A stretch of 21,684 nt of DNA from IMG/VR virus record IMGVR_UViG_3300045988_103300, positions 1 through 21,684 of that record. One strand, given 5' to 3'. Below the pieces are notes generated by a model. The model had not been told where the DNA came from. It was given only the letters and a program-made list of their open reading frames with translations, and searched no databases. Below are positions 5,519 through 21,684 of the stretch, one piece after another. This stretch comes from a virus. A program made the translations under genes and the position numbers. Position 1 is the first letter of the stretch. Each line of letters starts with the position of its first letter.

Positions 5519-6088
5519 TTAAACATATCTTCACTTGAATCCTTTAGCTGTATTTGCTAATCCACCACATACTCTACTAATAGCTCCTCTATCAGTTCCT
5601 ACAGATTTGGCTGCTTCTGTGCAACTTTCATACTCTTGAATAAAATTACCATCTAAATCATACTGAGCTACTTTACGACATCTTTGTTTGTTATGAGCAT
5701 CTACTTTATCTCTTCAAGATTCTGGGCAATTATGTTTCTTTCCCTTATTAGAATTAGACAGTTTCTTCTTTCATTCAGAATTAAATTTGACTCCGTAATT
5801 GCCTCCTTCTCCTCCAGGTTTCAAATTTAAACACATAGGATCAGTGTCCCATTTATCTCCAATTAGTTTGTATTCTAATTTAGATAATTCATCTGCATTA
5901 GTGCAAGTTGCCAAAATAATCTTTTGGTATGCATTAGGGAATCTTTTGTAATAATTAGTAATAATCCTTCCTGATCCTTTATATGGATCTTTATTTATGT
6001 CTTTACCTCTATAAATCCTTTTCCCAATATAATACTTGCCTCTTAATGTACCTGCAGTTAAAATTATTTTATAACAATAGTAAAACAT
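5519..6088 (-). CDS. GIY-YIG homing endonuclease with three in-frame TGAs (189 aa)
   Basis: ORF-track 5771..6088 (YCYKI...GKYYIGK...YKGSG GIY-YIG core) stops at TGA 5771-5773. Read-through gives ...KFNSE-W-KKKLSNSNKGKKHNCPES-W-RDKVDAHNKQRCRKVAQYDLDGNFIQEYESCTEAAKSVGTDRGAISRVCGGLANTAKGFK-W-RYV, ending TAA 5519-5521. The extension has NUMOD3-like basic repeats and the classic ..GF.W.Y tail. TGAs are at 5771, 5714 and 5531. Confidence 0.85.
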
Positions 6089-7786: not shown

Positions 7787-8476
7787 TTACTTACTCTTTT
7801 TATTGTTACTTGAAGGAAAATCATAAGCTCTTTGAAGAGGCCCCTCTCCAGGTTTAATGCTCCATCCTTTACCTCTTGCTCCACCAAGCCAAATATTGCA
7901 AGATGAGCTAGAGTAAAGATTGGGAAACATATCCTTTAATGGCTTATATGTATAAAGCTCAGGGAATTCGTTATAATATGTAATTATAAAGTCCTGTAAA
8001 CGAGTCTTAAAGAAATCCGCCTTATCTCTATAATACTTCTTAATTTGATTTACTTGACTTGCTTCAGCAGCAATATCTTTCTCATCATCAGTTCTCATAA
8101 CTCCAAAATTACCAAGCTTATAAGATATAGGAATTACTATCTCGCTAAGTACTTGATAAAGTAAATAAGGCTGAACATAATAGTCTAATAGCTCTTTATA
8201 TCTGTAGTTATCAGAATCATCAATAGAATCACTTGGAAGTGGCTCAGGAGGTTCTATTGGATGAACTGGAGTATGAGGATCAATCCAATTAATACATTTC
8301 TTTTGTAATGCTTCCAATAGCTTAGTACCAATAGTTGACTGAAGTTCTACATCTTGGGCACTTGTGATGGCTGCTTGTAAATATTTACCCGATATATTGT
8401 TATCTAATGTAGAATTTGACTTTATATAGTCTTCTGAAATAAGCAGTACATTTCTATAGTTAAGTTGTTCCATCAT
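7787..8476 (-). CDS. Possible head-tail connector (gp6-like) protein (229 aa)
   Basis: The N-terminal pattern ISEDYIKSNSTLDNNISGKYLQAAITSAQDVELQSTIGTKLLEAL resembles the start of gp6-like head-tail connector/DNA-packaging proteins. It is located after the portal. Weak assignment. Confidence 0.35.
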   Translation of the reverse strand: MMEQLNYRNVLLISEDYIKSNSTLDNNISGKYLQAAITSAQDVELQSTIGTKLLEALQKKCINWIDPHTPVHPIEPPEPLPSDSIDDSDNYRYKELLDYYVQPYLLYQVLSEIVIPISYKLGNFGVMRTDDEKDIAAEASQVNQIKKYYRDKADFFKTRLQDFIITYYNEFPELYTYKPLKDMFPNLYSSSSCNIWLGGARGKGWSIKPGEGPLQRAYDFPSSNNKKSK

Positions 8477-9068
8477 AAATAAATTTATTGTTTTTATAAG
8501 GTCTATTTTCTTTTAAAGCTAAATATAATCCAGAACGTTCTCCATTAACTGATTTAACAGCTTCTTTCATTGAATTATATCTTGCAATAAAATTCCCATT
8601 CATATCAAATCTTAATATAGGCTTAACTCTAGTAATTCGTCCTTTGGAAGCATTTCCAATTTTAATAAGTGTTTCCAAAGTATAGATTCCTTTCTTTCCT
8701 TTATTCCAGGGTGTTTTACCTTTTTTAGAATTTGACATTTTTGCTCTACTCTCATTAGAAAAAGAATACCCGTATGTACCTTCTCCTCCTGATGTTATAT
8801 TGTAACCATTTTCAGGAGTATTTGTTTTATATTTATGTATCAATATCCTTTCTAATGTCTTAGCACAAGCTTCTGGTAAATTATCTTTAATTATGATATG
8901 TTCAAATCCATCTCAGCTATATTTTTGTATCGCTTTATAAAAGTAAGCTTGAGTAGAGTATCCATATCCATTTTTTCACCTAGCTTGCACACTTTGTCCA
9001 GTAATGCCAAAATATAGCTTATTGTTATACTTATTTATATGGCAATAAACAGTATAATTATTCAACAT
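8460..9068 (-). CDS. GIY-YIG homing endonuclease with two in-frame TGAs (202 aa)
   Basis: ORF-track 8460..8843 begins on TTG and lacks the catalytic domain. Extending upstream through TGAs at 8913-8915 and 8976-8978 to ATG 9066-9068 gives MLNNYTVYCHINKYNNKLYFGITGQSVQAR-W-KNGYGYSTQAYFYKAIQKYS-W-DGFEHIIIKDNLPEACAKTLERILIHKYKT...GYNITSGGEG. This is a complete GIY-YIG domain followed by NUMOD3-like basic repeats. TAA 8460-8462. Confidence 0.85.
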
Positions 9069-10149
9069 TTTGTTTGCTATCTTCTTGTCCATTTGGAGTT
9101 AAGCTAAAAGGAGTTATAGTTATTGAACCTTTCATTCCAAATATCTTATCAAATGTATCTACTATTTCGACCTGAATTGGTCTAACTACTGTACGATTAT
9201 AAAGTTTAAAAGCTTCATTAAATTCTTGTTCGTTGAATCCACTTGAGTAGTTAAGGCCAAAAAGTACACTATTAGCTCTAAATGCGCAGAATATCTGTTC
9301 TCTTGTCCTATCAGATAAAGCACTATATTTCTCATCAAAATCATCAGAGTCTAAACGCTCAATAGTAGTCTTATTTGTTTCATCATCATTATATGAAATA
9401 AGAACTCTACCAGCATTTTGAAATCCTGAGAATTTCTCATTAATATTCATCTCAATCTCTTCTTTAACTTCGTCTGTAGGCTGTCCATTATTAAAGTTAA
9501 TGATAAGATTGCCCATAAATCCGTTATGAAGAGAATTTAGATGAAACTCATTAATATTCTTCTCAGTTTCGCAAGATAGGATAGCTGCACCATAAACAGG
9601 GACTGGATATACTTTTCTTGTTATATAGCCCTTATTATAAACAACACTTGTAGGATTATCATCTGAATAATTAAATTTTGGATATTTGATAGCTTTAATA
9701 GACCAAGCAGACCAATCATCGGCATAATAGAATACTTCATTCTTTTCATCAGAACGAATCTTCATAAAGTCAAGATGATATATTTCTGAAACTCTACCTA
9801 CCATATCTCTAATTATTTGTAAAGCATATCCTCCAAAAATCATCTTATCTTTAGATACTTTACGCATAATATCCATAATAGTCTCACCTTTCTTATTTAC
9901 AGTTACTTCAAATCCTGGTGCATTACATACAACATCATTACCAACAATAAAGTCAGCAGTCCCATTAATGATAGATTGAAGAGTAGCTACATTTAAGTAT
10001 AAATCCCATAGATATAATGGATAGCGATTATCTTCACCCCAAGAAATCCAATCAGAACCCCTTTTTCTCGATTCTACAGGAAGTACTAAATTTGACACTA
10101 CAACAGGATCAATTGCACTTAATTGTACTTTTGTTTTATTTTCGCTCAT
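9058..10149 (-). CDS. Portal protein (363 aa)
   Basis: ORF-track 9058..10206 starts on TTG; the likely start is ATG 10147-10149 (MSENKTKVQ...). Portal-family features: ..WISWGEDNRYPLYLWDLYLNVATLQSIINGTADFIVG.., ..MIFGGYALQII.., ..FLGLNYSSGFNEQEF.. All 5 Trp codons are TGG. Confidence 0.75.
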   Translation of the reverse strand: MSENKTKVQLSAIDPVVVSNLVLPVESRKRGSDWISWGEDNRYPLYLWDLYLNVATLQSIINGTADFIVGNDVVCNAPGFEVTVNKKGETIMDIMRKVSKDKMIFGGYALQIIRDMVGRVSEIYHLDFMKIRSDEKNEVFYYADDWSAWSIKAIKYPKFNYSDDNPTSVVYNKGYITRKVYPVPVYGAAILSCETEKNINEFHLNSLHNGFMGNLIINFNNGQPTDEVKEEIEMNINEKFSGFQNAGRVLISYNDDETNKTTIERLDSDDFDEKYSALSDRTREQIFCAFRANSVLFGLNYSSGFNEQEFNEAFKLYNRTVVRPIQVEIVDTFDKIFGMKGSITITPFSLTPNGQEDSKQNVE

Positions 10150-10528
10150 AAGCCATATATTTGTTTTGTTTATCGTATTGGTATTTATTATTCTGATAAT
10201 CTCCAACTCTTATTAGTCCTGAACTCAATACAGGTATAGGTTTACCAGCAACTAATATCTGTGTTCCTGTAGTAAGAGTATTTTCATAAGTTACCAGAAT
10301 AACTGGATTACCATATAGCTCTGACTGCATAGGATTATTTACATCTACAATTACTTCAAGTTTATTTGGGTTACTAAACAGAATATACTGATATTCACCA
10401 TCAGGCATATCATCAGATAATGTAATATCAAACTTATAGTAGATATTTTCAGCATAATTCTGATTTTCTAAGTTATATACATAAACTTCTTTAGTAATAG
10501 TATTCTGCATTAATATTGAATAATTCAT
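10136..10528 (-). CDS. Hypothetical protein (130 aa)
   Basis: ORF-track start 10537 is TTG; the first ATG is 10526-10528. TAA 10136-10138 overlaps the portal start by 14 nt. It is the first gene after a terminator. Confidence 0.55.
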   Translation of the reverse strand: MNYSILMQNTITKEVYVYNLENQNYAENIYYKFDITLSDDMPDGEYQYILFSNPNKLEVIVDVNNPMQSELYGNPVILVTYENTLTTGTQILVAGKPIPVLSSGLIRVGDYQNNKYQYDKQNKYMAYERK

Positions 10529-10600
10529 ATTTTGCAATAGTTTTACATTAATTTACATATCTTTTTCTTAAAATATAAAAGACTATGCATATGTATTAAT

Positions 10601-10629
10601 ATAAAAATAGGGAGAATAGAATCTCCCTA
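10601..10629 (-). terminator. Rho-independent terminator after the 323-aa LRR gene
   Basis: 8-bp stem: tagggaga (10608-10615), loop atagaa, tctcccta (10622-10629). On the minus strand it is followed by TTTTTAT (complement of 10601-10607). Confidence 0.75.
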
Positions 10630-10635
10630 AATTTA

Positions 10636-11607
10636 CTATGCAGAAGCTAATGTTCAGTTCTTAGATGTAGCTAAAGCTTTTTGTTCTTCTGTAAGAGCAT
10701 TATAAACTGCAGAATTAAATGTAATAGTTTGTGTAGAAATTCCAGTTAAATCTGACACTGCTTCTAGAACATTATCAACTGAACTAGACGTTAATGAAGG
10801 AAGATTAGCTAAAGTAAATGACTTACTTGTAACTACACCTCCGAATTCTGTTAATTCAGTTAGCCAGTATGAACTTCCAAATGTATAGCCAAAAGCTGTG
10901 GAGTTTAATGAATTATTAGGAGATATAGTTATTTTGCCTAAAGATTTTAATTTTTTACAATATGTAAACATCTGATTTGTTTGACCAGTACAGTTTGGAG
11001 CGTAAATATCTGGAATGGTTTCAATTGATCCACAATAATTGAAAATGCCAGAAAGAGAAGTTGCTATAGAAAAATCCATATTTGGTAAAGTAAGCAAACT
11101 ACTACATTTACTAAAAGTTTGAAAATATTGAGATAATTTTAAATTTGCATCTATTTCAACTAAATGTTGGCAGTTATAGAAAAGTTGACTACCTTGAGTA
11201 TGGGTACTATTTAATAATATTATTTTATGTATTGCATTACTGCTAGAAGTAGTATAAAACATATTATTCATATTTTTCCCTTGGCAATCAAATGTGAATT
11301 CATCATTTTCAGACCATTCACATCCGTAGAAAAAATCAGCATAAGAAGATTTATTTAGTATAAAATAATCCTCCAATTTTAATTCCCCACCATCTCTAAA
11401 TTGATGCATATTAGAATATCCTAATGATAATGGAATAATACTTAAATCAATTTTACCTCCACCTCCAGAAATCTGTCCTATCTTATCTGCATAGCTTCTA
11501 AAGGTATCTGAATCCGATACAGCAACACCTTTAGCTACAATAGCATCTTTAATGGCACTCTTAGTACCTTCAAGATACGTTAATTTATCAGAAATTGTAT
11601 TTGCCAT
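10636..11607 (-). CDS. BspA-type leucine-rich-repeat tail/receptor-binding protein, in-frame TGA (323 aa)
   Basis: ORF-track 10654..11607 stops at TGA 10654-10656. Read-through gives ...EEQKALATSKN-W-TLASA, TAG 10636-10638. The N-terminus (LTYLEGTKSAIKDAIVAKGVAVSDSDTFRSYADKIGQI) is typical of phage LRR fibre proteins. Repeats of the F..C..L type are present (FYGCEW.., FYNCQHLVEI, FSKCSSLLTL, FNYCGSIETI, FTYCKKLKSL). Confidence 0.7.
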
Positions 11608-11608
11608 A

Positions 11609-12130
11609 TTAGATATATTTAAATTTTACCCCTTTATAAGTGTCTGTTCTTCCTTTAAGACAATCTATAACTCTACTATGAGTATACCCATCTATTGATG
11701 TTTCAATTGCATTTTTATATGTTTTAACTAGTAAATCATTAATAAATAGCCCTACAGGTTTACTAATTTTATCAATACATCTATTTATTCTAGTTCCATA
11801 TGTATTATTATACTTTGCATCACATCATTCTAAATTTTCTACCCTATTATCTGTCTTATTTTCATTTATATGGTTAACATATGGTAGATTGTCAGGATTT
11901 GGAATAAATGCTTCTGCTACTAGTCTGTGAACTTTAATAGCTTTAGGTTTATCTAAGCCAGATACTAGAATTACATAATTATAGCCATATTTATCTATAT
12001 GCTGTTTTAGCTTTTTATGTATTTGTTTTCTGGTTCTTCCAATAGAATCTTTAAAAGTCAATGGGTTACTATATACATCTCCTGTAGAAGATACACTATA
12101 GTTAGGATAATTTGTTAATACTCTATTCAT
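11609..12130 (-). CDS. HNH homing endonuclease, in-frame TGA in the HNH core (173 aa)
   Basis: Likely start ATG 12128-12130 ([26 protein letters not shown]4-like). ORF-track 11825..12208 stops at TGA 11825-11827. Read-through gives ...[92 protein letters not shown] 11609-11611. NLEW is the conserved HNH_3 motif. Confidence 0.85.
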
Positions 12131-12737
12131 TTGGAATTTCACCATTAATTGTATCAAGAGTAGTTGAGATATTACCAATCTGAGCTTGAATTGCTGAGAT
12201 TTCTCCATCTAACTCTGTCATCTTTGTATTATATGCATCTGTAGTTACATAGCTTGATAATTCACTTTTATCTGCTTTAAGTGCAACTTCATCTTTAGTA
12301 GCTAATCCAGATACATCAGGAATCTTATTCTCTACAGCTGTAAGCTCTTCTTTAGTAGCAAAATCCTCAGTACTTGGAATATCTGCCTTGAGAGCATAGT
12401 TAGAAAGATCAATAGATAGATGTAAATCTTCACCCTCTCTATTAAATGACATAGGAGAGTTTACTTGAAATACTTCCATCTTAGATGTTTCTAATTCAGT
12501 AATATCATTCTTAATTGGCTCTAACTTAGGTTCAAGTATAACATCCAACTGAGAATTAATTTGCTCATCAATTATTTCAACAGCCTTATCTTCGGAAATG
12601 TAATTACCTTTAGGTTGAAATCTGGCATCTGCTTCAATCTTTGTATAAGAACCAACTGGAAGCTGAGCTGTCTCAATACCACATTTCTTACTAACATAGA
12701 AGGTCTGAGTATTCTTAGTATTCTTTAATATAATCAT
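12123..12737 (-). CDS. Tail-fibre-like protein, short paralogue (204 aa)
   Basis: ORF-track start 12764 is TTG; the first ATG is 12735-12737. TAG 12123-12125. It shares low-complexity fibre segments (..[48 protein letters not shown]..) with the central part of the 741-aa fibre. No Trp. Confidence 0.55.
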
Positions 12738-12744
12738 AGTTTTA

Positions 12745-12966
12745 TTATTTAAGAGATTCTTCAATAGCCTTCTCAGCTTGTTCTTTATAAATCCTGTCTT
12801 GTTCCAGGGATATTTCTCTTAGATGAGTTAAATCGCAATCTAATGGACAAATACACTCTTTAAATGAGTTATACCCTTTAATGTCCATTTCGTCTTTATA
12901 GTTAGTCAGAAGCATACTATCTTCAGGCTTAACTACTTGATACTTTTCTTTAATTTCAACTTTCAT
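12745..12966 (-). CDS. Small protein, paralogue of 16039..16272 (73 aa)
   Basis: ATG 12964-12966, TAA 12745-12747. It shares ..C(I)CPL.(A/C)DL...(R).I..EQ...Y.. with the 77-aa protein at 16039..16272 and occupies the same position (between an LRR gene and a fibre gene). Confidence 0.55.
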   Translation of the reverse strand: MKVEIKEKYQVVKPEDSMLLTNYKDEMDIKGYNSFKECICPLDCDLTHLREISLEQDRIYKEQAEKAIEESLK

Positions 12967-12967
12967 A

Positions 12968-13810
12968 TTAGTATGTTACTGACCAGCCTTTACTGGTGAT
13001 TTGTGATTTTTGTTCCTCTGTTAATGAATTATATACAGTTTGATGAAATTTGATTATTAAATTTCTATCTGTAGTATATAATCCATCTATAACATTATCT
13101 ACTGACTGACTCGTTAATACTGGTAATTTTGATAACTTTAATATTTCTATGTTAGTGCTTTTCCCTATATTAGTAAACCCTCCTAAATCTGTCAAATAAG
13201 AAAAAGGCCCAGAAGCAAATATATTTTGGTAATCCTGTCACTTTTCTGCATTATATCTAGGAACAGATTCTAAAGCTATACATCCTCTAAACATATTTTC
13301 AACACTTATAGCATTATCCATATTTATATTAGGAGCATTTTTTAAAGATGAGCATCCGTCAAACATATTGTAAAAAGCTATAGCTGTTGTGCCATTAATA
13401 TCTGGTACAGATACTAATGATGAGCAGTTTTGAAATGTTTGCCCAAGATGTACAAAATTTGATAGTATATTGGGAACTATTTTTAAATTTGTACATCCAT
13501 AAAATAAACCATTTGCTGCTCCTTTATTTGCGTTTGGAAAATAGGTCATATCGGATACATCCTCAATAGAAGTGCTTTCGAATATACTATTATTACCTTT
13601 ATACCAACTATTTACTGTATTTGCATCACAATCAGTAATTTCAGTCTGTCCTGGAAATATATTATCTATAACTAATTGCTTAAATTCAGTACTTTTAAAT
13701 ACTATAGGGGAGCAAATATTACTAGGCCAGACTTTGGTACTGCCAACATAAATAGCAGTACCTTGTCTGTCACCTACATAAAATGTTTTTAAATCATCTC
13801 TAATATTCAT
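12968..13810 (-). CDS. BspA-type LRR tail/receptor-binding protein, fusion of two track ORFs across TGA (280 aa)
   Basis: ORF-track 13238..13810 ends at TGA 13238-13240. ORF-track 12968..13195 is in the same frame and begins on TTG. The joining sequence is ...RYNAEK-W-QDYQNIFASGPFSYLTDLGGF... The fused protein has the same architecture as the 323-aa paralogue: LRR units FYGCTNLKIV, FQNCSSLVSV, FDGCSSLKNA, FRGCIALESV, then a C-terminal LSKLPVLTSQSVDNVIDGL...LTEEQKSQITSKGW module. Confidence 0.75.
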
Positions 13811-13811
13811 A

Positions 13812-16037
13812 TTATTCTACAATTAAATATTGTGTATTAGGATCTTTAGTTGATAAACCATCATACTCTGATTGAGTTAGAACAGTAATAGTATTTATTT
13901 GAGGTTGGGTTCCAGTTCCAGCTTCAATATAGTTTCCAGCAGGCTGAATACCTAAATCTGATAAACTCTTATTGCCAGATAACTCAACAGAATTAATCTG
14001 AGGTTTATTTGTTAACTGAGTATAATCGGTAGCCCCTCCACCTCCAGATATTTCAAGATTACCTTCTCCTAAAATACTTTCACCATTAATAGTCTTTATA
14101 TTAGTACCAGAAACTAGTTGCTCTTGATAACTATGATAACTAGTATCTGCTGATACTCCAGTTGGAGTAATAGTAGTTTGAACTACAGTATGATTAGCTG
14201 TAGTACTTTCAAAATGGAAAGTAGCTTGAATATTTTCTCCTGAAACAAAACATACTTCTGGAGCTGCTATATCACCATAACCTAGAATATTTACATAATA
14301 AAGCTCAAATGGTGTTTTATTAGCTATAGCATTCTTAACAGCAGCGAAATCTCCAGAAAGATGAGTAGTGGAATTTATAAATAGAAATGGAATATTAGAA
14401 CCACTTTCAATTTCTATATTACCTTCTCCAAGTAAAGACTGACTATTGATTGTTTTGATATTAGTTCCACTTACAAGCAAATCTTGCTTAGTAGCCATCT
14501 CTTTATCAAGAGAATCAATCTTATCTCCATCTTCTTCTTGTTTTGTTTTAATAATTGATATATCTGAAGTATTAGTTGCTACTTGAGTAGATAAAGATTC
14601 TACTACAGAAGAATCTGCTTTACCTGCAAGTTCTATTTTTGTTGCATAATCTCCTACAGGCTGTTTAGTAGCAAGCTGCTCATCAACATAAGTCTTATCT
14701 GCTTTACCTGCTAAATCTCCAGAAACCTCTGTTTCAGTTACAAAGTTAGAATCATTAGTAAGCTCACTAACTTTAGTTGGAATATCACTCTTTAAAGCAT
14801 AATCTCCTTTATCTTGTTTTGCATCAATCTTACTTTGTAAAGAAGATCTTAGAGTCTCAATTTCCTCATTAACTGAATCGTTAGTTGCATAATCACCAAC
14901 TGGTTGGTATCCAGATAAATCTACAGATAACTGAGTCTTATCTCCATTAAAAGCTAATGGAGCTTGAGGAGCAAATACTCCTTGTTTTTCCTCAAGTTTG
15001 GCATCTACTTCTTCTTTAGTATATCCTTTATTAGTAAGATCAACCTCAGTAACTTTAACAGTCATATTACCATTATTTACTAAGATTGCATTAATAACTA
15101 CTAATACACCATTATCTTGGAAATAATAGCCATATAAATCAATAGTTTCGGGATGCTCAATAGTTGCAACAGGAATAACTATAATATCACCTTTATATGT
15201 AATCTGGCAGAATAAATAGAAGTCCAGATTAGTTCTAATAAAGTCATAGATATGTTTCTGTCTTACAGGATCATTCTCATCTAAATTAAGTAAGAAATGA
15301 TTCTCAAAAGCAGAGATTACATTATCTATAATAGATATATTCTTTCCTGCTGTAAGCGTTTCCTGTTTTGAAGCTATCTCTTTATTAATAGCTGTATTTA
15401 AAGCATCAATTTCAGCTTTGGTATATTTATCTGCTAATTGTGCATATAGAGGACCATTAACAATACCAGCTTGGTTAGTCTCTGTATTATATATTGGAAG
15501 TTCAACTGCTTCTCCAGTTTGATTACCAAATACAGGAGCTAAAGTAACTTTAGATGGGACTGATTGAATATTAATGGCAGGTACGATTGAAGCTGCTCCA
15601 GATAATTCAGTTCCATTTAAAGATGGTTTGTTACGAATAGTATTATAATCTGCAGAAATAGTATTCTCTTCAATTACTATACCATCACCTTGAACAAGTG
15701 TATTTTGCTTTCCAGCAGTGGCTTCAGTAATCTCTGCAGTTACCTCTTCTTTAGTTGGATAGTCAGCTAGTTTCTCAGTAATCTGATTATCAACTCCTTC
15801 AACTGACGGAATTCCAAGTTCATCAGAAGTCATACTTCCATTTAACTCAACTCCATTAATTTCAGGTTTATTTTGAATATCAAAATAACTGTTTGTTCCT
15901 AACTGAGAACCATCCATAACCTTAACTTCATCATCCTTGTCAATAACAATAACTTTAGTCACATTTGACTTATCTATCGTTTCAACTTCAAGGACATTAA
16001 GATAAGGAAGAATTGTCTTTTCAGTTTCGTTTGCCAT
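13812..16037 (-). CDS. Long tail fibre protein (741 aa)
   Basis: ATG 16035-16037, TAA 13812-13814. Recurrent fibre motifs: NKPxINGxELxG (three times: IQNKPEINGVELNGSMTSDELGI, IRNKPSLNGTELSG, LTNKPQINSVELSGNKSLSDLGI) and LVSGTNIKTIN(S/G)xS(L/I)LGEGN(I/L)EI (twice). Central Ala/Lys/Asp-rich repeats are present (GDYATK.ELAGKAD). By my reading it contains no Trp. Confidence 0.75.
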   Translation of the reverse strand: MANETEKTILPYLNVLEVETIDKSNVTKVIVIDKDDEVKVMDGSQLGTNSYFDIQNKPEINGVELNGSMTSDELGIPSVEGVDNQITEKLADYPTKEEVTAEITEATAGKQNTLVQGDGIVIEENTISADYNTIRNKPSLNGTELSGAASIVPAINIQSVPSKVTLAPVFGNQTGEAVELPIYNTETNQAGIVNGPLYAQLADKYTKAEIDALNTAINKEIASKQETLTAGKNISIIDNVISAFENHFLLNLDENDPVRQKHIYDFIRTNLDFYLFCQITYKGDIIVIPVATIEHPETIDLYGYYFQDNGVLVVINAILVNNGNMTVKVTEVDLTNKGYTKEEVDAKLEEKQGVFAPQAPLAFNGDKTQLSVDLSGYQPVGDYATNDSVNEEIETLRSSLQSKIDAKQDKGDYALKSDIPTKVSELTNDSNFVTETEVSGDLAGKADKTYVDEQLATKQPVGDYATKIELAGKADSSVVESLSTQVATNTSDISIIKTKQEEDGDKIDSLDKEMATKQDLLVSGTNIKTINSQSLLGEGNIEIESGSNIPFLFINSTTHLSGDFAAVKNAIANKTPFELYYVNILGYGDIAAPEVCFVSGENIQATFHFESTTANHTVVQTTITPTGVSADTSYHSYQEQLVSGTNIKTINGESILGEGNLEISGGGGATDYTQLTNKPQINSVELSGNKSLSDLGIQPAGNYIEAGTGTQPQINTITVLTQSEYDGLSTKDPNTQYLIVE

Positions 16038-16038
16038 A

Positions 16039-16272
16039 TTATTCTATATGTTTAGGTTTTAAACTCATCTCTTTAAGTTCAAGGTATTCTTTATGCTGTT
16101 CCTCTGTAATTACCCTATAGACAGATAAATCTGCATTTAAAGGGCAGTACATTAGTGTTGAGGCTGTATAAAACTTGATATTATCTCCATCAGTATATTT
16201 AGTAACATAATATCCTTTATCAGTATATACCTTGATAAAAACGTCTGTTTGTGTTATATGTAAATGTTCCAT
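16039..16272 (-). CDS. Small protein, paralogue of 12745..12966 (77 aa)
   Basis: ATG 16270-16272 shares one base with the TAA of the 500-aa LRR gene. TAA 16039-16041. The motif ..MYCPLNADLSVYRVITEEQHKEY.. matches ..CICPLDCDLTHLREISLEQDRIY.. of the 73-aa protein. Confidence 0.55.
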   Translation of the reverse strand: MEHLHITQTDVFIKVYTDKGYYVTKYTDGDNIKFYTASTLMYCPLNADLSVYRVITEEQHKEYLELKEMSLKPKHIE

Positions 16273-17774
16273 TATGCAAGAATCCAGTTTTTATTAGTAG
16301 CTATTGCTTTCTGTTCATCTGCTAGTTTAGATAAATGAGACTCTCCTAATACTAATGTATATTGAGTATCTCCAGTTCTATCTTTAAGTGCATCTAAAAT
16401 AGATACTAATGAGTCTATAGTTAGAGCTTCAAGACCTAAACTAAAATCAAGATAATCAGCATCTAAAGTTCCAGTTAAAGTAATAGTAGTAAGATTTGGG
16501 CAATCACTAAAAATAGCTCCTCCCATAGTTAATCCAGAAAAGTTGGTAGTTACTGTTGTTAAACTTTGGCAACTTCCAAACATTCCTCCTGCAGATTGTA
16601 CTGAAGAAAGGTCTATATTCCAAGAACTTAAAGTAGTATTTTGGAACATACCATCTGCCTCAATTAGTGCAGGTAACTCTATATTCCAATTACCAATAGA
16701 AGTATTCCAGAACATCATTTTTCCATTAGATAAAACTGGCAACGAATAACCCCAATCTGTTCAACCTACTCTTAAACATTGACTAAACATTTCTTCTGCA
16801 TTAACTAATCTACTTGTATCAAGTATAGGATTTTCTAATAGACCACAATTAGAAAACATACCTCTTGCTTCAACTAATATAGCATTTAATGTTATAGACT
16901 TTAATTTATTACAGTTAGCAAACATATAATCGCCATTAGTCATTTTAGGTGTACTTGCAGTAAAAGAAGTTAAACCAGTAAATCCAAACATATTATTTCC
17001 AGATGTTAATTCTGGCATATCTATATTGAACGAGGTTAACGCACTATCTCCATTAAACATTCCAGCTCCATTCTGTAAATTAGGAAGCTCCTTAGTAAAG
17101 GATGTTAACTGAGGACAACTTTGTAATATTCCTTCTCCATTAGTTACATTAGTAAAATCGAAGCCTTCAGGAACTTCAGTAAACTCACTACCTTGTAGTT
17201 TAATTTTATTTGCTGCTACGTCAATACTTCCTCCAGTTGGCACATTAACAGTTACATCAATAAACTCCATATAATCATATCCATCTGCAGGATGAATCAT
17301 TGTAGTTCCATTCTCTGTAATAGTAACTTCTCTATGCTCCTCAATTGGAATCTCTACATCTACTTCAATACTTGATAAACCTTGATAGCCAGCATCAGGT
17401 TTAACTTCAGTCATTGATAGGTTTTTATCTATTGTTATATGTTTCTCTTGTAAAGTAGGAGTTGGTACTGGAACATTTATTTGTGCAGAAACCTTCTCCA
17501 TAACATCATAATCTGGATCAGGTAAAATATCTATTAATCCATTAGATGTAATTGCAATCTCTTTAGTAGATTGTACTGTGGGAACAACAACATCAACAGA
17601 TACATTTACTTTCGACATACCATCATAACCCTCATCTGGAGTTACAACGAACTCAGCATTCTGAGTATATTCTACAGATTTCTCCTGTAATTTACATTCT
17701 TGAGCAGCTAAAGCTTCAATATCTCTTGAAGTTGTATTCTTTGCTACTTCTGGTGTTGTATATTTAATAGCCAT
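16272..17774 (-). CDS. BspA-type LRR tail/receptor-binding protein, fusion of two track ORFs across TGA (500 aa)
   Basis: ORF-track 16761..17774 ends at TGA 16761-16763. ORF-track 16272..16742 is in the same frame and begins on TTG. Junction: ...MFSQCLRVG-W-TDWGYSLPVLSNGKMMFWNT..., in mid-LRR array. The N-terminus has four ~38-aa tandem repeats. There are LRR units on both sides of the TGA (MFANCNKLKSITL, MFSNCGLLENPIL | MFGSCQSLTTVT, IFSDCPNLTTITL) and a C-terminal ..LADEQKAIATNKNWILA module. Confidence 0.8.
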
Positions 17775-17809
17775 TTTCTATAAAATATAAATAGTTAATT
17801 ATCTGTCCA

Positions 17810-17848
17810 TAAACAAAATAAGGGGCAAGTAAATTAATACTCGCCCCT
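17810..17848 (-). terminator. Rho-independent terminator after the tube-like gene
   Basis: Stem: aggggcaagta (17821-17831), loop aattaa, tactcgcccct (17838-17848), with one mismatch. On the minus strand it is followed by TTATTTTGTTT (complement of 17810-17820). Confidence 0.7.
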
Positions 17849-17857
17849 CTTCTGTTG

Positions 17858-18382
17858 TTAAGCACCTACAACACTTTGAATAGCTTCAGCACTCAACTCA
17901 TAAGGATATGATTCAGAGTCAGTAGCTAAAGTCAGCGTATAAGCGTTCTGATCACCTTTTGCAGTACCAGTAACACCCGTACCAGCGGAAGCGCTTACAT
18001 AGTCATCTTTTCCTAAGAACCAGTATTTGCCATTAGAATCTTCTACAACAACTACAAGTTGTCCAATAGAAAGAGCAGCAATCTCGATTCTTTTCTTAGT
18101 CTCCATCTTTGTAAATACAAGAGCAAGCTCATTACTTACATAGTTGGTTCCTGCAGTTTCGTCAACGTTCAATGTTGAGGTTAGAGAACCAGTACCTTTG
18201 CGGAATTGGTAATTATACCATTTAGCTGAAGATTCAAGAGTAATAGCTGAGATTTGATTAGTCTCATCATCTACAGTTACACTCTTAACATTATCGTACT
18301 GAGTAATCCATACCTGTTTGATACCACCAAGCGAAGATTCGCAATCCAGGGTAATACCAGCGATAGTTATTAAACAAGCCAT
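17858..18382 (-). CDS. Putative major tail (tube) protein (174 aa)
   Basis: It lies immediately after the capsid gene, is followed by a terminator and is visibly less AT-rich (codon bias of abundant proteins). The pattern ..GGIKQVWI......V......I.....W..Y.F....+..L...ALVF.K......I..L..G.LVVVVEDSNGKYWFLG.. resembles tail-tube proteins. Tentative. Confidence 0.4.
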   Translation of the reverse strand: MACLITIAGITLDCESSLGGIKQVWITQYDNVKSVTVDDETNQISAITLESSAKWYNYQFRKGTGSLTSTLNVDETAGTNYVSNELALVFTKMETKKRIEIAALSIGQLVVVVEDSNGKYWFLGKDDYVSASAGTGVTGTAKGDQNAYTLTLATDSESYPYELSAEAIQSVVGA

Positions 18383-18420
18383 ATAATTTCAATCTTATTT
18401 AAAGTTAAACTCTATTGAAA

Positions 18421-19326
18421 TTAGGCTTTGGCACCAAGAACTACCTCATCAGGGAATGCAACCTGTACGCCAGCGTTAAATTCAATAGCTAATCTAAATT
18501 CGCGGAAATCTTGTGAATACCACAATTCAAACTTCTCTTCATCGTTCATCATATCGCAACCATAGAAGAAGTTCTTATCTAACTGACCAGCAACAATCTT
18601 ATCAGTTCCATTAAGACCATTAACAGCGATTACTTTAACCTGCGAACCAGGAAGCATAATCTCACCATTAAGATTCTCACCACTATAGTGGTAGTAGTTC
18701 TTAGCAACTAACTCCTGGATAAATTTACGGAAAGTATCACTACCAACTAAGATAGAAGCACCATCCAGAACCTTCTCAGGAATAGCGTTATAAACAGCCA
18801 TAATGTCATCATAAGCAGATGCTCCAGTAATTACTACATCAACAACACCATCAGCAGCACCAAGGATCTTTAACAGACCATCAAAATACTTCAGGTTATT
18901 TGTTTCAGAAGCAGTATCACCCTGCCAAATAGCAGTCTCGATAGCAGCCTTAACGTTCTCAACTACTGCATTTACGAAATCCTCTTCAAAAGGAAGCGTC
19001 TTCTGACCAGCAGCTACTCGTACTTGATACTGAGTCCAGTATTTAAGCATCTCTTTATCACAATATGCCATATTGATCTTAATATTACCAGTAGCCAGAA
19101 TTCTCTGAGAAAGAGTCTGAGTTCCAGCTTCATTCCAACCACAAGCTAGGCCATCGCCAAACTGAATAGCAGTTGATAACAGGTTAAGAGCAGCACTAGT
19201 TTTGATGTCAGTTTGAAGATTGAACAACGAAGCACTCTTAGCCTTTAATACAGCCTCTTTAATAAGAGGAAGACGTCTCTGCTCTACATAAGCAGTAAGA
19301 CTAGTCATTACAGGACTATTTGCCAT
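18421..19326 (-). CDS. Major capsid protein, HK97 fold (301 aa)
   Basis: Position after protease and scaffold, size, and motifs typical of HK97-like MCPs (..AIWQGDT....YFDGLLKIL.., C-terminal ..EFNAGVQVAFPDEVV..). Less AT-rich than neighbouring genes. All 4 Trp codons are TGG. Confidence 0.75.
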   Translation of the reverse strand: MANSPVMTSLTAYVEQRRLPLIKEAVLKAKSASLFNLQTDIKTSAALNLLSTAIQFGDGLACGWNEAGTQTLSQRILATGNIKINMAYCDKEMLKYWTQYQVRVAAGQKTLPFEEDFVNAVVENVKAAIETAIWQGDTASETNNLKYFDGLLKILGAADGVVDVVITGASAYDDIMAVYNAIPEKVLDGASILVGSDTFRKFIQELVAKNYYHYSGENLNGEIMLPGSQVKVIAVNGLNGTDKIVAGQLDKNFFYGCDMMNDEEKFELWYSQDFREFRLAIEFNAGVQVAFPDEVVLGAKA

Positions 19327-19348
19327 AATTTTATAAATAATTTAATAA

Positions 19349-19960
19349 TTAACCAATAAAGTTTTTAAGCTTTTTATCAATAACAGGATTACCAGTCATT
19401 ATTGAAGCTTTGCCTTCTATCTGTTCCTCAGCTGAAAATGCAGCACTCATTTTGCTCATCTTTTCAACCGTCTTTTCTGTAGCTTCAGATTTACCCTCTA
19501 ATTCAGCTACTTTCTTAACAAGCTTATCAACAATGTCATAAAGCTCATTAATTTCGCGATGAATTGCATCAATTGCATCAGTTACAGTTTCTTTATCTCC
19601 ATCAGTAGCTACTTCAGGATCAACTGGCTCTTCAGCAGTTTCTACCTTGCGTTTTCCACAAGCAGCATCAACTTCTGCTTTAGCTGCTTCTTCTGGATCA
19701 ACTTCAGCTTTTGGATCAGTAATGGACTCTACTTTACCGTCTTTAACAACAATAGTTTTGCCATCTTCGGTAACATACTCACCATCAGCAGCAGGTGCAT
19801 ATTCTCCAGTATCAGTATCCATTGTATATACACTCATACCTGCCCTTAGATCCTCATCCTCACTACCATCGTAAGTTAGAACTCCAGCACTAGTCTTAAC
19901 ATCGTTAAATTTTGCTAAGAGTTTACTAAGTTCGATTCTCAGTTTAGTTAATTTGTTCAT
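19349..19960 (-). CDS. Scaffolding protein (203 aa)
   Basis: A highly acidic, Ala/Glu/Lys-rich helical protein (..INELYDIVDKLVKKVAELEGKSEATEKTVEKMSKM..) directly upstream of the capsid gene. No Trp. Confidence 0.6.
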   Translation of the reverse strand: MNKLTKLRIELSKLLAKFNDVKTSAGVLTYDGSEDEDLRAGMSVYTMDTDTGEYAPAADGEYVTEDGKTIVVKDGKVESITDPKAEVDPEEAAKAEVDAACGKRKVETAEEPVDPEVATDGDKETVTDAIDAIHREINELYDIVDKLVKKVAELEGKSEATEKTVEKMSKMSAAFSAEEQIEGKASIMTGNPVIDKKLKNFIG

Positions 19961-20555
19961 ACTTAAATTTAAAATTTTTATGATAGTTTTGTTTATTTTT
20001 GCAACATTTTATAATAGCACTATGATCAAAATTTCCGTTTCTTTCAGCGTCCATAGCAGATTTCCAAGTGCATATATAAGTATCATTAATATCTGTCATA
20101 ATTATACGTTTACTTACTTTTTCTTTCTGCTGTTCAGTTTGTTTAGTTCCTAATCTACATTCTCTTAACTTTAATTTTGTTTCATCCTTTAATACTCTTC
20201 CAGACTGTTTTAAAGACATTTTGTGTTTAGATTCTTCACTGTGTTTAAATCCAGTATTAGAACCTCCACCTTCATTTAAATTATAACCATTATTTAATGT
20301 ATCAAATAACTGAATATATTTAATTTCTGCATTATTTAGTTGTCTTTTCAATAATTCTGTAGAAGAACAACAAAAGATTTGAAGAATTTCCCATTTAAAG
20401 TTATTGAATTCATATTTCCTAATCGCTCTATGAAAATATGTAAGATTAGAACTGTATTTATGTTCATTCTTTCTTCTCAAGAAATTATTTGTTTGTCCTA
20501 CATATTTATTGCCATTTATAAGATTTGTTGCTAGATATATAACTCCACTATACAT
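19944..20555 (-). CDS. GIY-YIG homing endonuclease (203 aa), no TGA
   Basis: GVIYLATNLINGNKYVGQT...RRKNEH...AIRKYEFNNFKWEIL...E..YI.....NGYNLNEGG is a complete GIY-YIG domain. It is followed by NUMOD3-like repeats (HSEESKHKMS, LKDETKLKLRE, QTEQQKEKVSK) and a C-terminal DNA-binding tail. It is inserted between the protease and scaffold genes, overlapping the scaffold start by 17 nt. Confidence 0.85.
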   Translation of the reverse strand: MYSGVIYLATNLINGNKYVGQTNNFLRRKNEHKYSSNLTYFHRAIRKYEFNNFKWEILQIFCCSSTELLKRQLNNAEIKYIQLFDTLNNGYNLNEGGGSNTGFKHSEESKHKMSLKQSGRVLKDETKLKLRECRLGTKQTEQQKEKVSKRIIMTDINDTYICTWKSAMDAERNGNFDHSAIIKCCKNKQNYHKNFKFKYEQIN

Positions 20556-20556
20556 T

Positions 20557-21147
20557 CTATTTAACTCTTTTTATCTTCTTAATCATATTAAGGATCTCTT
20601 TTATTTCGTCATATTCATCAGACTTTCTCTCTAAAGTAAATAAACCTTCAATTGAGAACCCTTTAAACTTACCAGCTTTAATTGCATCCCAAATAACTTG
20701 ATTATCTACTTTATAAGTGGCAAATAAAGAACCATCAGGAACATCCTGGAATTCAACTGGAGATATTCCTCTATTAATATCCTTTACATAGATTTCTTGT
20801 AGAGTAATTCCATTTAAATCAGAATCTTCTAAATGTTCAATATTTACATCTGTAGTTCTCTTATCATACAGCATCTTCTCTGCCATTTTACGAAGAGTTT
20901 CCTTATCATACTGTATGTAGTATTCTCCGAGTTTCTCATCTCGTCTGAAAATTGGAGTATCACTTAACATTAAGCAAGATGTTACTAAATGCTTATCTTC
21001 ATCCATCGAGAACTTCTGAGAATTACTAAAAGCAACCCAGTTAACTTGTGTAGCTGGTTTGCTTGTTAAAGCAACATATTCTATTCCATCACAATCATCA
21101 GTAATCACTGCCTGAAATAATGGAAGATCATTATAAGTAATTTCCAT
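20557..21147 (-). CDS. Prohead protease, XkdF-like (196 aa)
   Basis: The pattern ..YVALTSKPATQ... ...IFRRDEKLGEYYIQYDKETLRKMAEKM......DVNIEH.......G.TLQEIYV..........W....KV.N..IWDAIKAGKFKGFSIEG matches the XkdF-type putative serine protease domain. It lies upstream of the scaffold and capsid genes. TAG 20557-20559. Confidence 0.6.
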   Translation of the reverse strand: MEITYNDLPLFQAVITDDCDGIEYVALTSKPATQVNWVAFSNSQKFSMDEDKHLVTSCLMLSDTPIFRRDEKLGEYYIQYDKETLRKMAEKMLYDKRTTDVNIEHLEDSDLNGITLQEIYVKDINRGISPVEFQDVPDGSLFATYKVDNQVIWDAIKAGKFKGFSIEGLFTLERKSDEYDEIKEILNMIKKIKRVK

Positions 21148-21199
21148 TTTTATTAATATATAGCACTTTATAAATTTGTAATATTTTTAGAATATCTAA

Positions 21200-21250
21200 T
21201 GTAACCTTTTTACTCATATTTTGTAGTTAATAAGAATAAAAAAGTTACAT
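21200..21250 (+). promoter_or_regulatory. Conserved 51-nt element, copy B (ATGTAAC-N37-GTTACAT)
   Basis: Sequence: tgtaacctttttactcatattttgtagttaataagaataaaaaagttacat. 42/51 positions are identical to copy A (3239-3289), same length and same orientation. It lies in the 112-nt gap between two minus-strand virion genes. Confidence 0.6.
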
Positions 21251-21259
21251 TAAACATTT

Positions 21260-21684
21260 CTAGAATGAAGCATTAGATTCAGTAACTGCTACCTTAGTTT
21301 GAGCTGAAGTAATATCAGATTCAACAACATAACATTTAATTGGATTGTTAAGTTGGTCTGTTTCTTTATCTCCAAGTAAGTTTCGAGTATATTCAACTGG
21401 AGCTGTATTTAAATTAGCTGGAGCAGATACTGATGCTGATACTCCTGAAGCAGATGCACCACTAGTTTCGTCTACTTCCCAGATCTTTTTAACATTAGCT
21501 ATACCAGCTGCAATTGCTGCAGCAGCGGCGGCAGCACCTAAAGCTGGACCAACAATTGGAATTCCTGCCATTGCAGAATAAGCACTGTTAGCTGCACTAT
21601 ATGTATCAATTAAAGCTTGAGCTGTTGCAAATCCTTTACCTACTTTACTTTCCTCTCCCCATATAGTTGCCATACTTCCTGCAA
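21260..21684 (-). CDS. C-terminal part of a Gly/Ala-rich virion protein (partial, open to window edge)
   Basis: The frame stays open upstream of the track ATG (21671-21673) to the window end. It has a hydrophobic Gly/Ala zipper (MAGIPIVGPALGAAAAAAAIAAGIA) of the kind seen in tape-measure or ejection proteins. TAG 21260-21262. Confidence 0.5.
   Translation of the reverse strand, partial: AGSMATIWGEESKVGKGFATAQALIDTYSAANSAYSAMAGIPIVGPALGAAAAAAAIAAGIANVKKIWEVDETSGASASGVSASVSAPANLNTAPVEYTRNLLGDKETDQLNNPIKCYVVESDITSAQTKVAVTESNASF

Follow-up and report, generated by a model that had tools for sequence, protein, structure and literature searches.

What does a phage gain from three leucine-rich repeat (LRR) genes, two small genes and two fibre genes set side by side and interrupted by an endonuclease gene, and which of these genes work together? 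The question is raised by IMG/VR record IMGVR_UViG_3300045988_103300, of which we analysed 21,684 nt (the window) from an uncultivated phage with a genome of ~30 kb. The initial annotation had read the block as a cassette of LRR gene, small gene and fibre gene, present twice, with an endonuclease at a cassette boundary and a third, solitary LRR gene behind it. Its placement of the seven genes and of the HNH gene was correct, all being intact under translation table 4, and its view of the block as a host-recognition-type island of diversifying modules was borne out; the modules themselves turned out to be different ones. On sequence grounds the island is the minus-strand interval 17849-10608, bracketed by two predicted terminators. 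We propose, with a probability of roughly 0.6, that it is a multi-receptor adsorption and host-range island of a tailed phage, in which conserved fibres serve as shafts for plug-in LRR heads. The features of the island are the following.

17820..17849, minus strand: terminator-like hairpin with a 12-bp stem and a T-run, between the p174 stop and the LRR-A start; upstream edge of the island, and the stronger of the two hairpins
16272..17774, minus strand: LRR-A (LRR500), 500 aa, BspA-type LRR protein by Pfam and PDB 4fs7, optional in the clade together with sm77; its modules are an N-terminal module (aa 1-30), four ~38-aa beta repeats (aa 31-183, nt 17226-17684), the LRR solenoid and the shared C-terminal cap
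16039..16272, minus strand: sm77, small protein of 77 aa, its start overlapping the LRR-A stop
13812..16037, minus strand: fib741, long fibre of 741 aa with a conserved shaft and a Phage_tail_C motif at 13818-13892
12968..13810, minus strand: LRR-B (LRR280), 280 aa, with an N-module (aa 1-29, nt 13724-13810), a hypervariable centre (~13039-13721) and the shared C-cap
12745..12966, minus strand: sm73, small protein of 73 aa and paralogue of sm77, starting 1 nt past the LRR-B stop
12123..12737, minus strand: fib204, short fibre of 204 aa from its ATG, coiled-coil type, with a C-terminal 'socket' motif at 12138-12179
11609..12130 (open reading frame readable from 12208), minus strand: free-standing HNH homing endonuclease gene (HNH_3 and NUMOD4) with one TGA read as Trp, between fib204 and LRR-C
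10636..11607, minus strand: LRR-C (LRR323), 323 aa, with an N-terminal helical 'plug' and Gly linker (aa 1-51, nt 11455-11607), a hypervariable centre (~10752-11402) and the shared C-cap
10608..10629, minus strand: terminator-like hairpin just past the LRR-C stop, the terminator that the initial annotation had noted there; downstream edge of the island

These gene models are correct only under genetic code 4, because the standard code cuts all three LRR genes: with table 11 each is split at its single in-frame TGA, which lies at 16761-16763 in LRR-A, 13238-13240 in LRR-B and 10654-10656 in LRR-C. With table 4, gene calls tile the whole window densely, and the island genes overlap or are spaced by only 1-2 nt. 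The window has a G+C content of ~30% and carries nearly all its genes on the minus strand. TGA ends none of the 31 window genes (TAA 26, TAG 5, TGA 0), and occurs in frame as a sense codon 16 times, beside 57 TGG codons. In orthologue alignments with related contigs, the residue most often found opposite TGA is W (357 cells vs 181 for the runner-up), and the TGA of LRR-C occupies the position of the W in the ..KNW/..KGW ends of its paralogues. Reading TGA as Trp also gives back full-length HNH, M15 and GIY-YIG proteins. These data support the use of code 4, with TGA encoding Trp, by this phage. The genes that contain TGA are the LRR and endonuclease genes, the M15 endolysin gene, p224 and four small genes at the left end, and the TGA-free ones include capsid, portal, scaffold, protease, p174, the fibres and the small proteins. 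Neither a suppressor tRNA nor any other known RNA gene was found in the window and 27 related loci. Gut phages that recode TGA to Trp (Borges et al., bioRxiv 10.1101/2021.08.26.457843) are alike in their low G+C content, in the clustering of in-frame TGA in lysis and accessory late genes and in having no detectable suppressor tRNA, which is the case for 65% of the code-4 genomes in that study; they differ in size, as the clades described there are mostly much larger than ~30 kb.

The TGA that splits each LRR gene under table 11 could also be taken to mean that these genes are stop-interrupted pseudogenes, and a standard-code reading of such genomes would make all three heads look that way. We discarded this explanation and give it practically no weight: TGA is never terminal and lies opposite W, the interrupted neighbours are restored in full, the ratio of nonsynonymous to synonymous substitution (dN/dS) is 0.2-0.4, and the orthologues found of LRR-B (26/26) and LRR-C (25/25) are all intact.

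The LRR proteins are of the BspA type. LRR-A exceeds the gathering score of the family, matching Pfam LRR_5 with 58 bits (cut-off 27.7) and DUF285 with 27.7 bits (cut-off 25), and sequence search pairs it with PDB 4fs7 at 2.6e-11. LRR-C scores 19.3 bits with LRR_5, under the cut-off of 27.7, and matches 4gt6 at 3.9e-6; the Pfam scan of LRR-B gave no match, and BLAST aligns LRR-B with LRR-C at E=2e-24. Database orthologues are annotated PF13306/PF03382. An AF2 model of the orthologue P0068, 92% identical to LRR-C, has a pLDDT of 89 and places helices at residues 5-25 and 36-43, followed by a low-confidence Gly linker, a solenoid of short strands regularly spaced across residues 60-270, and an alpha/beta C-cap with a pLDDT of 96-98. 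Its matches in BFVD are BspA-family LRR proteins from gut phage genomes, and BFVD entries carry this annotation for many such genomes. The beta repeats of LRR-A weakly match the Ig-like family Big_9. Among the fibres, fib741 ends in a tail-fibre domain, Phage_tail_C (PF24243, 37.8 bits, cut-off 23.7), and fib204 weakly resembles coiled-coil and trimeric-fibre chains (5apz at 1.4e-3, reovirus sigma-1 at 0.45); both are predicted to be trimeric virion fibres.

Smith-Waterman scores compared with 500 composition-preserving shuffles confirm that the corresponding members are paralogous and that their likeness is no compositional coincidence. The z values are 32.4 for LRR-B/LRR-C, 14.9 for LRR-A/LRR-C, 6.9 for LRR-A/LRR-B, 9.4 for sm77/sm73 and 8.0 for fib741/fib204, and three unrelated control pairs gave z about -1. 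The C-terminal module that the initial annotation had seen in the LRR proteins recurs in 71 LRR proteins of the clade. Its claim of fibre paralogy stands as well, with the likeness limited to a single region (28% over 162 aa). We also considered the neighbouring protein p130 as a third paralogue of the small proteins and rejected it (z about -1). At the DNA level, there is no direct repeat >37 nt in the interval 10000-18500, and no tandem repeat was detected; therefore, any duplication must be ancient.

Which genes vary, and in what unit, was read from 55 viral contigs collected by their capsid protein, mostly of ~30 kb, on which code-4 gene calls were mapped with the window proteins. About 30 are close relatives (capsid identity >=89%), and the distant ones have capsid identities of 47-58%. 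In the close relatives the island is always present between p174 and p130/portal and holds two or three LRR genes; the distant relatives have no island, and p174 lies ~400 nt from the portal gene. Across related phages the number of LRR genes ranges from 0 to 3 (one in L014, one in L036, two in L038), so that the copy number differs among relatives, as the initial annotation had led one to expect. LRR-A and sm77 are absent from 12 genomes of the close group, and in L013 and L012 window position 17774 joins 16043 directly, which makes LRR-A plus sm77 a precise 1731-bp insertion/deletion. As this junction excludes the fibre, the insertion unit is an LRR gene with its small gene. Single genes are missing too: the short fibre from L028, sm73 from L006 and sm77 from L031. 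In L010 (11584/11583; window 17740 to 16328), an internal deletion has joined the start of LRR-A (~11 codons) to its end (~19 codons), with sm77 left intact; the product looks like a remnant of the optional LRR-A module.

This bears directly on the unit that the initial annotation had proposed, LRR, small protein and fibre, duplicated in tandem and diversified in place. This order is indeed seen twice, with the members of one copy paralogous to those of the other, and the series LRR-small-fibre recurs in a more distant relative (L061). However, the unit that comes and goes contains no fibre, and the fibres, taken there as a diversifying part, are the conserved part. Among close relatives, mean pairwise identity is 92% for the major capsid protein (MCP) and 93% for p174; it is 77% for both fibres, mostly through insertion and deletion of repeat blocks, 68-73% for the small proteins, and 54% for LRR-A, 50% for LRR-B (median 29%) and 53% for LRR-C (median 44%); the medians of the three LRR positions span 29-50%. 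Over its full length, the C-terminus included, fib741 is 85-95% identical to its relatives apart from such repeat-block changes, and the N-terminal ~44 aa of fib204 are kept even in relatives that hold just a stub of it. The LRR genes, and not the fibres, are therefore the diversifying element.

The variation within the LRR genes follows one pattern. At every position, alignments of the relatives show a near-invariant N-module and a near-invariant stretch of the last ~20 aa, and between them a wholly changed centre. The N-modules of the three positions differ from one another: position A begins with MAIKYTTPEVAKN... and the beta repeats and ends in ..IATNKNWILA, position B begins with MNIRDDLKTFYVGDRQGTAIYVGSTKVWP and ends in ..QITSKGWSVTY, and position C begins with MANTISDKLTYLEGTKSAIKDAIVAKGVAVSDSDTFRSYADKIGQISGGGG and ends in ..LATSKNWTLASA. 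The genomes are mosaic at the DNA level, with recurrent breakpoints in nine of them at ~17235-17490/16328, 13721-13723/13039-12967 and 11401-11407/10752, flanked by blocks of up to 99% identity. Clustered at 70% identity, the centres form 10 alleles at A, 5 at B and 10 at C, and none is shared between positions. With centres <=28% identical between positions, recent duplication or transfer of cassettes among the three can be rejected. Tandem duplication, which the initial annotation had made the main source of diversity, thus gives way to another process: these centres, the differing N-modules and the conserved flanks suggest that diversity arises mainly via allele replacement by recombination at the flanks. 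A diversity-generating retroelement was also considered and rejected, as there is no repeat pair >37 nt in 10000-18500 and no reverse-transcriptase match among the window proteins scanned, and adenine-specific mutagenesis does not apply because the alleles are 25-40% identical and differ by insertions and deletions. Between members of the same allele, dN/dS is 0.21-0.39 for LRR-B, 0.23 for LRR-C, 0.11-0.25 for the small proteins and 0.15-0.33 for the fibres. Values of 0.1-0.4 indicate that all island copies are kept by purifying selection, which disposes of the decay that the initial annotation had named as the alternative.

If the fibres are not paired with the LRR genes upstream of them, with what are they paired? 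The N-module of LRR-C offers an answer, as it is found in 2015 representative clusters (E <=1e-3). Among the best 150 matches, nearly all place it at residues 1-52 of proteins of 56-1141 aa, in which the module is 65-80% identical and the remainder is different. In a survey of 80 viral loci with the module, we looked for a fibre-end motif, '...IGxIxxxLDxINGE', within 25 codons upstream of the start of the module gene. It is present in 35/41 distinct junctions outside the window clade vs 3/5000 random windows from the same loci, and two of the 6 misses are variants (..TLTEING* and ..NSILGETI). Individual junctions in which ...LDxINGE or ...ALTAILGE is followed by the module include L038, where the shaft is collagen-like, L061, L062, L065, the SPP1-like phage L064 and a temperate siphophage. 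In the siphophage, the homologous head lies between the tail genes and the holin/amidase genes, which is a receptor-binding position. Neither the N-module nor the fibre-end motif has a Pfam family. Because 35 of the 41 junctions follow this rule, fib204 and LRR-C resemble a shaft-and-head pair, and the HNH gene consequently lies inside such a pair and not, as first described, at a cassette boundary.

A second shaft-and-head pair, for which the case is weaker, may be formed by fib741 and LRR-B. The long fibre ends in ..TQSEYDGLSTKDPNTQYLIVE and is followed by the position-B N-terminus of LRR-B; in L061, the gene behind that of a fibre ending in ..PNDRILYLIP.. encodes a non-LRR protein of 381 aa that starts with ..YLGRDIARGYLGSTLVY. 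A natural chimera in L028 (16453-17475) is also informative. The short fibre has been lost there, and its first 44 residues replace the first 26 of LRR-C, a fusion to be expected if the fibre is anchored to the virion by its N-terminus and the head is normally attached to the fibre through the plug. Among the proteins of the representative library, P0188 (745 aa) carries 11 tandem N-modules of the LRR-C type, and P0159 and P0175 carry two copies each.

The junctions also weigh on the proposed tandem unit of LRR, small protein and fibre. Across unrelated phages, the fibre ends match the N-module of the gene downstream; the HNH gene interrupts the pair of fib204 and LRR-C; and no DNA-level repeat accompanies paralogues whose N-modules differ. 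We regard that unit, and the phase in which it reads the genes, as unlikely.

The small proteins fit the island of shafts and heads in a different way than first proposed. They share the CPL..DL motif that the initial annotation had pointed out, although its term 'small Cys protein' overstates the cysteine, of which one (C43) is invariant along with T24, Y26 and P44. Neither sm77 nor sm73 has a Pfam or PHROG match, and the family amounts to 67 clusters in 5.8 billion proteins; the sizeable contigs among them are mostly of ~30 kb, and the family is confined to this phage clade. The AF2 model (pLDDT 92) has five strands and a C-terminal helix, and its likenesses in BFVD are uncharacterised gut phage proteins of 55-72 aa (TM 0.6-0.77), with three of the source genomes also giving LRR matches. 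The assembly families Tfa, Caudo_TAP, gp38 and gp57A were considered and rejected for want of any sequence or fold match. Three sets of observations relate the small proteins to the heads. First, sm77 is lost together with LRR-A while the long fibre remains. Second, sm73 is kept in L028 despite the loss of the short fibre. Third, outside the clade an ORF of 62-95 aa trails heads that end in ..LAKLTEEExAxATxK(G/N)WTL, in nine contexts (L101, L109 (=L038), L114, L119, L061, L062, L065, L066 and L058), and no such small ORF lies behind heads with other C-termini. On these grounds we place the small protein with the C-terminal module of the LRR protein, and not with the fibre that follows it.

Taken together, these observations lead to the following model. 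Two conserved shafts, fib741 and fib204, would carry exchangeable BspA-type LRR heads, and the N-module of each head would make a non-covalent joint with the C-terminus of the fibre whose gene immediately precedes that of the head, so that fib204 would pair with LRR-C, and fib741, through its Phage_tail_C end, with LRR-B. LRR-A would be an optional third head, which, with its own N-module and four beta repeats, would attach elsewhere. The 73-77-aa proteins would, most probably, help to assemble the head or cap its C-terminal end. The host range would be varied by homologous recombination within the conserved flanks, through which one LRR centre is exchanged for another of many old alleles. The HNH gene would be a selfish homing gene inserted between fib204 and LRR-C, and the breaks it makes in HNH-free genomes during co-infection may co-convert the adjoining head alleles.

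The nuclease itself is well defined by its matches to HNH_3 (32.4 bits, cut-off 24.8) and PHROG 59 (2e-37), and its role as a nuclease is predicted from them. As expected of a homing endonuclease, it is a ~0.5-kb insertion at one fixed site, present in 13 relatives and missing from 12. No linkage of its presence to a given LRR-C allele was seen, the HNH-positive genomes holding diverse alleles. The 21.7 kb of the window hold five free-standing homing endonuclease genes, three of the GIY-YIG type (5519-6088, 8460-9092 and 19944-20555) and two of the HNH type (1571-2062 and 11609-12130), and the presence of those at 8460-9092, 19944-20555 and 11609-12130 varies among close relatives. Other GIY-YIG genes occupy differing sites of the island's 3' edge in L011, L014, L022, L028 and L029.

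Several points weigh against the model of plug-in heads. The docking of heads on fibres is read from gene adjacency, and both the presence of the LRR proteins in the virion and their binding of receptors are inferred, the latter with indirect support from the hypervariable centres between conserved ends and from the position of the head in the siphophage. The succession of fib741 and LRR-B is known from two contexts, the window clade and L061, and in L014 the long fibre occurs with no LRR-B beside it, which shows that the long shaft can do without that head. LRR-C carries the C-terminal module, yet no small gene lies behind it; as L006 does without sm73 and L031 without sm77, the small protein is not strictly needed in cis. 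Its fold has no characterised relative (best PDB E 0.27), and the small ORFs of other lineages score marginally on the family hidden Markov model (HMM), with 13.8 bits at best. Finally, p174, p130 and the upstream 726-aa and 1118-aa proteins, considered as markers of the tail type, have no family match.

These last two proteins enter into a different account of the island, in which the LRR proteins sit on the virion and bind something other than the bacterial receptor, for instance mucin or glycans of the animal host, or bacterial capsule non-specifically, for retention in the niche, and the true receptor binder is among the 726-aa and 1118-aa proteins encoded upstream of the tape measure gene. 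Such retention has been proposed for Ig-like capsid decorations. The beta repeats of LRR-A are Ig-like by their weak Big_9 match, and the BspA-type LRR proteins of cells are known as adhesins that bind ligands of various kinds. The large unannotated proteins of the tail region would be available as receptor binders, and the distant relatives that have no island must still adsorb. Against this stand the multi-allelic hypervariability at three positions within flanks that are 90-99% identical, a pattern to be expected of an arms race with variable bacterial surfaces, and the homologous heads in the receptor-binding position of the siphophage. We consider niche retention a rather unlikely explanation, slightly more so than the tandem unit.

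The LRR and small genes could alternatively be non-structural passengers of the late operon that serve, for instance, in anti-defence, superinfection exclusion or remodelling of the host surface. The block of LRR-A and sm77 is optional and moves as one, terminators bracket the island, and TGA codons mark the LRR genes as they do the endonuclease and lysis genes and not the core structural genes. A passenger role would leave unexplained that conserved N-modules and fibre C-termini go together across many lineages, and the tight spacing with the fibre genes is consistent with translational coupling. In addition, no signal peptide or transmembrane segment is evident from reading the sequences. 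We consider this role improbable. The genes around the island are those for the major capsid protein, scaffold, XkdF-type protease, tape measure C-terminus, portal, a DUF6712 protein and the M15 endolysin, and the capsid, scaffold, portal and tape measure genes among them place the island within the late structural region.

How does an island of shafts and plug-in heads compare with known systems? Branched systems with several receptor-binding proteins and N-terminal adaptors include TSP1-4 of CBA120, gp63.1/gp66 of G7C and the dual tailspikes of SP6/K1-5. They are alike in the number of receptor-binding proteins per virion, the short N-terminal docking modules, the variable domains and the exchange between phages; they differ in that their receptor-binding proteins are beta-helix tailspikes, whereas here BspA-type LRR solenoids, known from genes alone, would dock on the ...LDxINGE end of a coiled-coil fibre. 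In phages of the T2/T6 type, the gp37 fibre has a separate tip adhesin, gp38, and assembly proteins such as lambda Tfa, Mu U and Caudo_TAP act in fibre assembly. Here too the adhesin gene lies directly behind the fibre gene and is hypervariable between conserved segments, and a small helper gene lies behind the receptor-binding gene; unlike in those systems, to which there is no sequence or fold relation, the small protein trails the head and not the fibre, and LRR-C has none. With the BspA-family surface proteins (LRR_5 PF13306, DUF285 PF03382; 4fs7, 4gt6) the phage proteins share the repeat type. They differ from them in having phage-specific N-modules, in showing no signal for secretion or anchoring when the sequences are read, and in having a C-cap that falls outside the matches to 4fs7 and 4gt6.

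A closer parallel in phages is the set of DUF7941 paralogues of Goslar (Chimalliviridae), in which a common N-module precedes variable carbohydrate-binding, hydrolase or LRR domains and for which a part in host recognition has been proposed (bioRxiv 10.64898/2026.04.21.720040). That family resembles ours as a set of paralogues in which one N-module is followed by variable domains, LRR among them. It differs in the N-module itself and in the phage group, since the DUF7941 module reportedly occurs in chimalliviruses only (bioRxiv 10.64898/2026.04.21.720040), while the plug module described here is spread over many small and medium phage genomes. Within the collection of papers searched, we found none in which BspA/DUF285 LRR proteins are considered as receptor-binding proteins of phages. 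The strategy is thus familiar, and the parts are largely undescribed: the BspA-type LRR heads, an N-module and fibre-end motif outside Pfam, and a small protein whose fold has no known relative.

The reach of the junctions beyond this clade suggests a broader, tentative proposal, to which we give somewhat less than even odds. The fibre end '...IGxIxxxLDxINGE(V/I)*' and the ~50-aa module 'KLxYLxxTKxAIKxAIxxKGVxVxDxDTFRSYAxKIxxIsGGG' might form a universal, non-covalent plug and socket for interchangeable heads, LRR and others, in many unrelated gut and environmental phages, with the '..LTEEx..K(G/N)W' cap and a 60-95-aa protein of new fold completing the assembly of the head. In uncultivated gut phages, most receptor-binding proteins cannot be recognised as such, and this stands in the way of host prediction and engineering. 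If true, the proposal would supply a general rule by which such proteins can be found and re-targeted, as the variable part here is a BspA-type LRR solenoid rather than the fibre, and the partners can be read from gene order. A rule that covers many lineages could help to recognise heads and shafts in metagenomic phages and to design head swaps; together with the undescribed modules, this makes it both useful and testable.

The remainder of the window and its relatives yielded further observations. The structural genes stand in an unusual order (window 21673..7787, minus strand; L004 350-8656): the 726-aa and 1118-aa proteins, tape measure, protease, scaffold, capsid, p174, the island, p130, portal and DUF6712. 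The sole long plus-strand gene (3323-5041, 572 aa) matched nothing in Pfam or PHROG; its P-loop-like GKVGCGGTS and DExH-like LLIDEYH suggest that the product may be a helicase-type replication protein. Searches against 50,697 phage records for cultured relatives left the DNA and the MCP unmatched, and LRR-B obtained weak LRR matches there. The search of GTDB genomes for a host returned just two 48%-identical matches, which lie on 20-26-kb contigs of metagenome bins and are uninformative for host assignment. A relative (L019; IMGVR_UViG_3300045988_175865, 148,631 nt) sits at the end of a 148-kb contig, which could be a prophage within host DNA or an assembly chimera. Many assemblies of this clade (L001, L017, L018, L020 and L034) break off within ~1-3 kb of p174 on its downstream side, where the island begins or shortly inside it, which suggests that strain mixtures break assembly at this hypervariable locus. 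Finally, in the 28 nt upstream of 22 start codons, no gene is preceded by a Shine-Dalgarno-like sequence, and the leaders are A/T-rich. Such leaders resemble those of Bacteroidota initiation and may therefore be taken as a hint to the host.

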